Assembly (NCBI GenBank): GCA_964016885.1
Contig: OZ024755.1
Coordinates: 23,126,001-23,190,000 of the forward strand
DNA length: 64,000 nt
Reading direction: 5' to 3'
Origin: Eledone cirrhosa
Taxonomy: Eukaryota
Part shown: one piece after another, positions 50,656 to 51,539 of the stretch
Numbering within the stretch: position 1 is the stretch's first letter
Layout of the letters: every line of letters begins with the position of its first letter
The notes under the pieces: generated by a model
The model's database searches: none
Seen by the model: only the letters and a program-made list of their open reading frames with translations
Told to the model about the DNA's origin: nothing
Position numbers and translations under genes: made by a program

Positions 50656-50790
50656 TATATATATATATATATATATATATGAATATATATATGCTCTATG
50701 CAAATTGGTCTGCCCACTACTAATTTTCATAGAAAAAGCATATAACGATATGTGCTTTCACGATTCTCTAGAGAAGCCGGAAGATAGGTA

Positions 50791-50835
50791 AATATTGCTG
50801 ATGAGATGTAACAACATCGAAACTAGTCCAATATT
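50791..50835 (+). ncRNA. Type I hammerhead ribozyme, canonical core
   Basis: aatattg-CTGATGA-gatgt.aaca.acatc-GAAA-ctag-TC-caatatt; predicted cleavage after C50828. Confidence 0.92.
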
Positions 50836-51255
50836 CCTTGTCTGGCTTTCTGCAGAATAGAGGAAAGGTGTTTCCTCAAAAACCAGTATGACTCTAAGAA
50901 CCGGTTTGTCTGTGTGTCTACATACGGAATAGCTGGACACTCACAGTAAAGTGACCAGTGAAAACTCGGTACATCTACATATGTACACGTGTGTGTATTC
51001 ATATGCATACTAGTATTTCAGTATACATATGTGGATGTACATTTTTAACTTAATTGTTTAAGCGTCAGTCATACAAAAGTGAGTTACAAACGAAACGAAA
51101 TTTAATTTCGTTTCGTTATTTGTTTTTATCGTCTCCGTTGAACCGGTACGTACTCACGCTCTATGCAAATTGGTCTGCCCACTACTAATTTTCATAGAAA
51201 AAGCATATAACGATATGTGCTTTCACGATTCTCTAGAGAAGCCGGAAGATAGGTA

Positions 51256-51300
51256 AATATTGCTGATGAGATGTAACAACATCGAAACTAGTCCAATATT
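51256..51300 (+). ncRNA. Type I hammerhead ribozyme, canonical core (second copy)
   Basis: Identical to 50791-50835; predicted cleavage after C51293. Confidence 0.92.
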
Positions 51301-51539
51301 CCTTGTCTGGCTTTCTGGAGAATAGAGGAAAGGTGTTTCCTCAAAAACCAGTATGACTCTAAGAACCGGTTTGTCTGTGTGTCTACATACGGAATAGCTG
51401 GACACTCACAGTAAAGTGACCAGTGAAAACTCGGTACATCTACATATGTACACGTGTGTGTATTCATATGCATACTAGTATTTCAGTATACATATGTGGA
51501 TGTACATTTTTAACTTAATTGTTTATATATATATATATA

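Follow-up and report, generated by a model that had tools for sequence, protein, structure and literature searches.

A young single-armed retrozyme in Eledone cirrhosa, with sister copies that point to Penelope-like double priming on an RNA that is likely circular and edited

Results

A tandem hammerhead element within (TA)n repeats

The window analysed here, a stretch of 64,000 nucleotides of E. cirrhosa DNA, carries on its forward strand a single-armed, 5'-truncated insertion (50693..51525) made of 1.8 tandem monomers. With position 1 of the monomer set at 50829, the segments present are, in order, 330-465, 1-465 and 1-232. A near-identical 368-bp direct repeat had been announced in the preliminary description and was confirmed base for base, 50693-51060 matching itself at +465 with one mismatch (50853). 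The layout proposed there was upheld in so far as it consists of a 465-bp unit plus a partial copy, while its framing as repeats around a spacer gave way to the tandem arrangement.

Two type I hammerheads lie on the forward strand, at 50780..50851 (predicted cut after C50828, in a GUC) and 51245..51316 (predicted cut after C51293). They are 465 nt apart and, as previously noted, have identical cores, AATATTG-CTGATGA-GATGT/ACATC-GAAA-CTAG-TC-CAATATT in both copies. Both matched the Rfam model Hammerhead_HH9 with 38.9 bits (E 4.6e-7), which is below its 52-bit gathering score. Stem I of hammerhead 1 is predicted to extend for about 30 bp, pairing 50766-50797 with 50829-50856; the C at 50853 (+) is replaced by G in the second copy and in the modal unit of each of the 17 arrays compared, and is a single-unit change that disrupts one base pair of the outer stem I. 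Stem III consists of 2 bp, invariant, around an ACUAGU palindrome, and fits the palindromic dimer-type stem III that had been suggested. No hammerhead core was found on the minus strand of the element.

Cleavage at both sites is predicted to release, and circularisation to close, a monomer of 465 nt (50829..51293, +) with 37% GC. On the circularised unit the longest stop-to-stop frame has 64 aa, in agreement with the earlier claim of no coding capacity, and the reverse transcriptase (RT) plus GIY-YIG ORF expected of an autonomous Penelope-like element (PLE) is absent from the insertion. The monomer contains a small conserved hairpin that includes a fixed 3' end, here called A (monomer 224-232; internal copy at 51049..51062, +). 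From there a 'tail' of about 70 nt (51061..51129, +) leads to a second fixed end, B (monomer 301, which is 51129), and harbours the predicted spacer hairpin, of 13-14 bp (51089..51117, +). The 3' end of the insertion (51517..51525, +) coincides with fixed site A and adjoins (TA)n, making it the inferred priming point. The TA noted on both sides proved to be (TA)n with TTCA interruptions. The left tract (50140..50692, unstranded), read directly, has an inverted interruption (TGAA) in its last 20 nt or so, beside the truncated 5' end; the right tract, also unstranded, spans 51526..52830. In itself the window copy is ordinary, and the mechanistic information lies in its sister copies.

Several neighbouring features were recorded. 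At 14830-15240 a small head-to-head pair of another hammerhead-bearing repeat sits in (TA)n, with a tail of about 75 nt on one arm, the anatomy also seen in the retrozyme. Copies of other repeats, whose cores read CTGAAGA...GAAA, occur at 28146 (-), 39832 (+), 49886 (+) and approximately 24216-24372. An open frame of 689 codons (52917-54986, -), encoding a LINE-type RT, 5'-truncated and flanked by (TA)n, is located 1.4 kb from the retrozyme, and a MITE-like, perfect inverted repeat of about 40 bp is found at 47259-47378. Frameshifted RT and GIY-YIG-type ORF pieces of a PLE occupy 60823-62558 (+); the inverted 5' repeat of this PLE has a minimal hammerhead-like core at 60767 (-), and its identity to the L088 family of PLEs is only 22%.

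A family of thousands of dispersed tandem arrays

The copy-number and tandem-structure check that had been proposed was run on the genome, and returned thousands of copies in tandem arrays. Exact matches to the hammerhead core numbered 7,809 in 3.0 Gb, against 0 for the reversed control. Exact patterns for the insertion ends recovered at least 2,085 ends of one type, so a one-off local duplication does not account for the locus, and 626 forward-strand ends of the other (the reverse count is redundant). In a similarity search, 25 of 603 candidates were scored and gave 266 matches on many contigs, with an identity to the window unit of 99-100% among the matches listed. Overall, copies diverge from that unit by less than 0.5% to about 10%, and the existence of copies at less than 0.5% places the window copy in a very young subfamily. 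The units form short head-to-tail arrays, dispersed in the genome and ranging from dimers to multimers, with a type I hammerhead in each. The other reading to be weighed, that of a 3' UTR belonging to a coding PLE, fails as well: none of about 80 loci examined was attached to an ORF of its own, and the PLE regions compared had no real homology to the monomer.

The non-coding tandem monomers, the type I hammerhead in every unit and a stable predicted circular fold agree with the retrozyme identity put forward at the outset. The locus is therefore a member of a new family of animal non-LTR retrozymes, a kind of element that is already known. In the main texts of the mostly open papers searched, we found no description of the present family, nor any account of retrozymes that have two fixed ends, form arrays with two arms or bear marks of editing; Figure S9 of PMC7229834 and the tables of a recent preprint may bear on novelty.

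A conserved fold of the predicted circle

The minimum free energy of the circular monomer was -146.0, compared with -97.7 ± 5.5 for 60 shuffles (z -8.7). Across 33 full monomers, the predicted pairs were kept in 99.4% of cells and 6 pairs had changed on both sides, versus 2.1 in shuffles (0/500). One of the compensatory pairs lies in hammerhead stem II, with A-U in 17 monomers and U-A in 16. Since the structure was derived from the same, mutually related sequences, this covariation supports the predicted fold without proving it.

An snRNA-type promoter had been considered on account of the ATGCAAAT octamer of the monomer, and was discarded because no U1/U2 upstream region among those listed has the octamer; comparison of the monomer with 6 U1/U2 upstream regions gave no match (p 0.2-0.96). 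The U1 and U2 upstream regions themselves (L165-L194) lack the octamer and have two motifs in common, TCAGT near -55 and CCCTT near -255. Single unit-length contigs in the sequence sets X4 and X5 were likewise dropped as candidate RNA circles. X4 was uninformative, and the X5 contig is explained by trace host DNA, given that X5 and X6 also contain an unrelated high-copy PLE end; set X1 behaves as genomic DNA.

Two fixed 3' ends and head-to-head arms

Among 21 loci picked by similarity, all 34 of the 34 3' ends adjoined TA and mapped to one of two monomer sites, 224-232 (A) or 300-301 (B), and each of the 13 head-to-head two-armed loci had one A and one B end. A larger sample of 56 regions fetched from chromosome 1 provided 40 A+B loci, the second arm being tiny in 6. 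It also contained 12 single arms, 2 loci that were interrupted and one A...A locus with four arms, but no B+B locus. A further 3 chromosome-1 loci were resolved as A+B, raising the count of loci with one end of each type to 43 of 44. Because this sample had been picked by exact end patterns, its TA-flank count (136/136) is circular and was not used. Also left out of the counts were L134 (which duplicates L133), halves of long loci where they overlapped, the indel-rich L035, a 30-unit array that served for the variant spectrum only, and L144 and L164, which had been picked as exceptions. When pattern matches lying within 10 kb of each other were paired over the first 121 Mb of C1, 23 pairs were A+B, 1 was B+B and 1 was A+A, against about 48% A+B expected if the ends were independent. 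The sole B+B pair turned out to be two separate insertions, and in one A+A locus the arms were 2.1% apart.

The 5' ends, in turn, were evenly spread: of 147, no 7-nt window exceeded the simulated 95% level, and a pile-up at the hammerhead cut was looked for and amounted to only 2/147 ends. The cleavage junction was crossed by 76 of 100 arms. Junctions between arms (n=57) had an overlap in 30 cases, were blunt in 5 and contained inserts in 22. In 9 of 44 A+B loci neither arm was contained in the other, indicating that both arms were made on RNA. The A-to-B stretch was better conserved than other parts of the monomer, and remained so once the columns by which the loci had been selected were removed (2/56 vs 51/322, p 0.012). 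At the level of the family, then, there is a tail with two alternative 3' ends and an extension at one end only, and there is also an inverted 5'-truncated partner arm, the window copy being single-armed. Fixed ends on (TA)n together with A/B head-to-head arms are the 'tail plus inversion' footprint of Penelope; any target-site duplication or deletion is masked by the (TA)n.

Candidate partners among Penelope-like elements

PLE families with RT and GIY-YIG domains in the present genome also show (TA)n targets, inversion and a one-sided tail, of about 40-55 nt. Intact RT-GIY-YIG ORFs occur in the families of L085, L087, L088 and L100. Judged by these sequence features, the fixed 3' ends on (TA)n, one-sided tail and inverted arms of the retrozyme fit the PLE-driven mobilisation that had been put forward. 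A search that retained 50 regions from 10,597 GIY-YIG candidates yielded no real match to the monomer in those regions, only 12-15-nt matches at chance level; these were mostly antisense and were treated as chance, not as homology between the monomer and a PLE pLTR.

At one locus (L122 2270-4770; G000:C1:41.49 Mb) a retrozyme B arm is joined head-to-head to a 5'-truncated PLE. The joint consists of 41 nt of inverted retrozyme, and the PLE part meets (TA)n with the end that lacks the tail. Divergence from the respective majorities was 0.7-1.3% for the retrozyme and 2.0% for the PLE, whose family has 11,772 ends and a C-x4-C-x2-C linker and is Neptune-type by motif. This arrangement suggests co-insertion by a Neptune-type family; an insertion with deletion into an older PLE copy is a possible alternative. 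A second apparent chimera, L106, joins at a short TATATA in an old PLE piece of 82% identity and was excluded from the count.

Clonal arrays and A>G marks

Sister arms differed from each other by a median of 0.7%, versus 4.3% to other loci (27 loci). Young arrays were clonal across the inversion, with 18/19, 16/17 and 14/15 units identical. Rare variants found in all units of a locus, collected from 12 loci, were A>G in 32 of 47 cases (T>C 3, C>T 2), whereas among single-unit variants A>G made up 13 of 150 (T>C 23), a difference with a Fisher p of 2e-15. This p value overstates independence, because a small number of loci hold most of the A>G sites, with three loci contributing 21 of the 32. 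A stricter filter left A>G at 8/13 all-unit and 13/109 single-unit variants. Strand-specific, clustered A>G changes are a known mark of A-to-I editing. Were selection for G-U wobble the sole cause, C>T should be favoured as well, and it was rare (2). If a linear multimer were edited, its units should carry different marks, and repeated copying of one edited monomer should mark all alike.

Some edited haplotypes were private to a locus. All 21 of 21 genome matches to the A96G haplotype lay in a single locus, with 10 in one arm and 11 in the other, and a multi-A>G haplotype had 4 of 4 in one locus, in both arms; the source locus of a haplotype may, however, be missing from a single assembly. A third edited haplotype was spread over 7 loci, showing that edits can pass through DNA masters and found subfamilies. 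Haplotype switches within arms were 0 of 116 in the main sample, and 1 was seen in a later locus (L202 1765-6806; G000:C744), where the 5'-most 1.2 units of an arm change from a 468-nt edited subfamily to the 465-nt subfamily of the window, with the switch point near monomer 1-70. An RT can therefore switch templates. At C1:56.39 Mb (L203/L137) an A>G change runs A-GG-A-GG-A-GG-AAA along one arm and is absent from all 12 sites of the other. As the period of 3 appears in one arm only, this locus contradicts a single monomeric circle feeding both arms; the pattern could record a circular trimer, a multimer, two molecules or a later triplication. In the 30-unit array at C1:5.74 Mb, shared periodic variants show later local duplication.

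Discussion

We consider it likely, though well short of certain, that the window holds a young single-armed retrozyme copy inserted by a Penelope-like RT-endonuclease priming on the predicted 465-nt circle at a cut (TA)n. In such a route, multimeric transcripts would be cut as double hammerheads through the ACUAGU palindrome, and a lone monomer, with its 2-bp stem III, would be a poor cutter, so that the circle should be stable. The circle may then be A-to-I edited by ADAR. A PLE protein, probably dimeric, would nick both strands of the target, site A serving one DNA end and site B the other; each RT would travel along the circle over a distance that varies at random, displacing the strand ahead of it, and the two cDNA ends would be joined by microhomology. 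A single arm, as in the window, would result when only one primer extends. Against this route count the period-3 pattern at C1:56.39 Mb, the later duplication in the 30-unit array, the A+A locus, the edited haplotype spread over 7 loci, the missing homology between the monomer and the PLEs sampled, and the use of unprocessed RNA by the anole PLE in vitro (PMC11167929). A more specific version is tentative, and we would put it somewhat below an even chance: that a dimeric Penelope protein holds one 465-nt circle at two dedicated sites 70 nt apart, with one priming from each (TA)n end, and that both RTs roll the same ADAR-edited molecule, the two-armed array being a multi-pass readout of a single RNA. 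The retrozyme would then evolve largely by fixing RNA edits, and the insertion event could be shared with a PLE RNA, as at L122, with a Neptune-type driver.

Other explanations keep parts of this scheme. The same PLE double priming might use long uncleaved linear multimers transcribed from homogeneous master arrays, with the hammerhead incidental or acting later. Arms do read through cleavage sites, the period-3 pattern in one arm at C1:56.39 Mb would fit, and precedents exist: hammerhead cleavage is dispensable for the anole PLE, whose main substrate in vitro is unprocessed RNA (PMC11167929), and 1 of 9 Xenopus retrozyme dimers was cleaved (bioRxiv 2026.07.22.740005). Such a template predicts unit-specific A>G, however, and the excess was found among all-unit variants and not among single-unit ones (13 A>G vs 23 T>C); arms of up to 17 units would moreover need to survive uncut, and the hammerhead core is invariant, with its compensatory stem II pair. 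We regard this account as unlikely, if the most serious of the competitors. Somewhat less probable still is that PLE-type insertions of 1-2 units were later expanded by unequal crossing-over and homogenised by gene conversion, a satellite-like model proposed in bioRxiv 2026.07.22.740005. The periodic shared variants of the 30-unit array at C1:5.74 Mb speak for it, and it may also underlie the GGA triplication at C1:56.39 Mb, but the youngest loci, with 0-2 differences across chromosomes, already have 10-19 identical units over both inverted arms, and private marks are common to both sides of the inversion.

Only one arm might be RNA-made, the second being a DNA fold-back copy trimmed at the other site by the endonuclease. 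This would account for the marks common to both arms and for some junctions that lie in hairpins with overlaps of 23-32 nt, and endonuclease resolution has been suggested as the origin of the tail (PMC8557442). We hold it to be very improbable: in the 9 A+B loci mentioned above neither arm lies within the other, the longer arm can be either one, and the tail matches the two internal RNA sites bounding it at which the anole PLE protein starts in vitro (PMC11167929). Equally little credit, and in our view slightly less, is due to a circle that also replicates from RNA to RNA in a viroid-like manner, genomic arrays then being snapshots of clonal RNA lineages. The RNA is viroid-sized and strongly folded with covariation, and the A>G marks mean that lineages change while RNA; nevertheless, the minus strand has no hammerhead, and DNA masters plus an RT explain the data without RNA-to-RNA replication.

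Priming by a Penelope-like protein on a circle can be set beside several known systems. In L1 twin priming, two target ends prime on the RNA and the resulting head-to-head arms are joined by microhomology; in the retrozyme, unlike L1, priming occurs at two fixed sites separated by about 70 nt, and both arms can reach many units in length and overlap in sequence. Viroid-like and HDV-like replicons differ from the retrozyme, which has a ribozyme in one polarity only. Closer are PLEs, whose hallmarks include insertion into microsatellites, a partner arm that is inverted and 5'-truncated, and a tail of 30-40 bp on one side only (PMC8557442, Craig et al. 2021). For the anole PLE, the protein is predicted to be a dimer, and assays in vitro show cleavage and extension on both strands of the target (PMC11167929, Frangieh et al. 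2024). As these accounts describe Neptune/Naiad-type insertions, the retrozyme shares with them 5' truncation, the inverted 5'-truncated arm, a tail at one end, microsatellite targets and the type I hammerhead, and departs from them in having no RT/GIY-YIG ORF, a tail of about 70 instead of 30-40 nt and both arms as multimers of a closed unit; it also differs in showing no pLTR homology to the PLE families sampled in the present genome.

With plant LTR retrozymes, as outlined in bioRxiv 10.64898/2026.07.22.740005, it has in common a non-autonomous nature and two hammerheads bracketing a circle-forming unit; it differs by a type I, not type III, hammerhead, by tandem units in place of an LTR-body-LTR structure and by variable 5' ends on (TA)n. 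The nearest relatives are the metazoan non-LTR retrozymes, for which non-coding tandem monomers with one type I hammerhead each, a GC content below 45%, dimers to large multimers and thousands of copies are likewise described. At 465 nt, the unit exceeds the monomers of coral, mussel and axolotl in length (220-400 nt) and stays within the 51-972 range of the preprint. Its weak stem III resembles that of the axolotl HHR_Amex1, best cleaved as a dimer, and axolotl hammerheads with weak helices generally cleave much better as dimers (PMC7229834). For these elements, a primed circle has been proposed to yield tandem cDNA, with PLEs as strong candidates (PMC7229834, Cervera and de la Peña 2020), and retrozymes have been linked to pLTRs, local amplification being invoked (Li, Clavereau and Pollet 2026, bioRxiv 10.64898/2026.07.22.740005). 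In their main texts, the metazoan retrozyme papers put forward tandem cDNA templated by a circle, or local amplification, and offer no genomic evidence for either route. Nor do those texts describe two 3' ends at fixed sites, arms arranged head-to-head, insertion into (TA)n or A>G marks shared by all units.

On the sequence comparisons made here, the sister copies give unusually direct genomic evidence that a PLE primes twice on an RNA that is likely circular and edited. The return of animal retrozymes to DNA through a circle, an RT and a PLE has been proposed since 2020, and a recent preprint leans on local amplification for the arrays (bioRxiv 10.64898/2026.07.22.740005). The present family makes rolling-circle target-primed reverse transcription directly testable, since it supplies a young monomer with its two start sites mapped, a (TA)n target and PLE proteins as candidates. 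The strict pairing of one A with one B end shows how a PLE deploys its two start sites in vivo, and the A>G marks would represent RNA edits that have become part of germline DNA.
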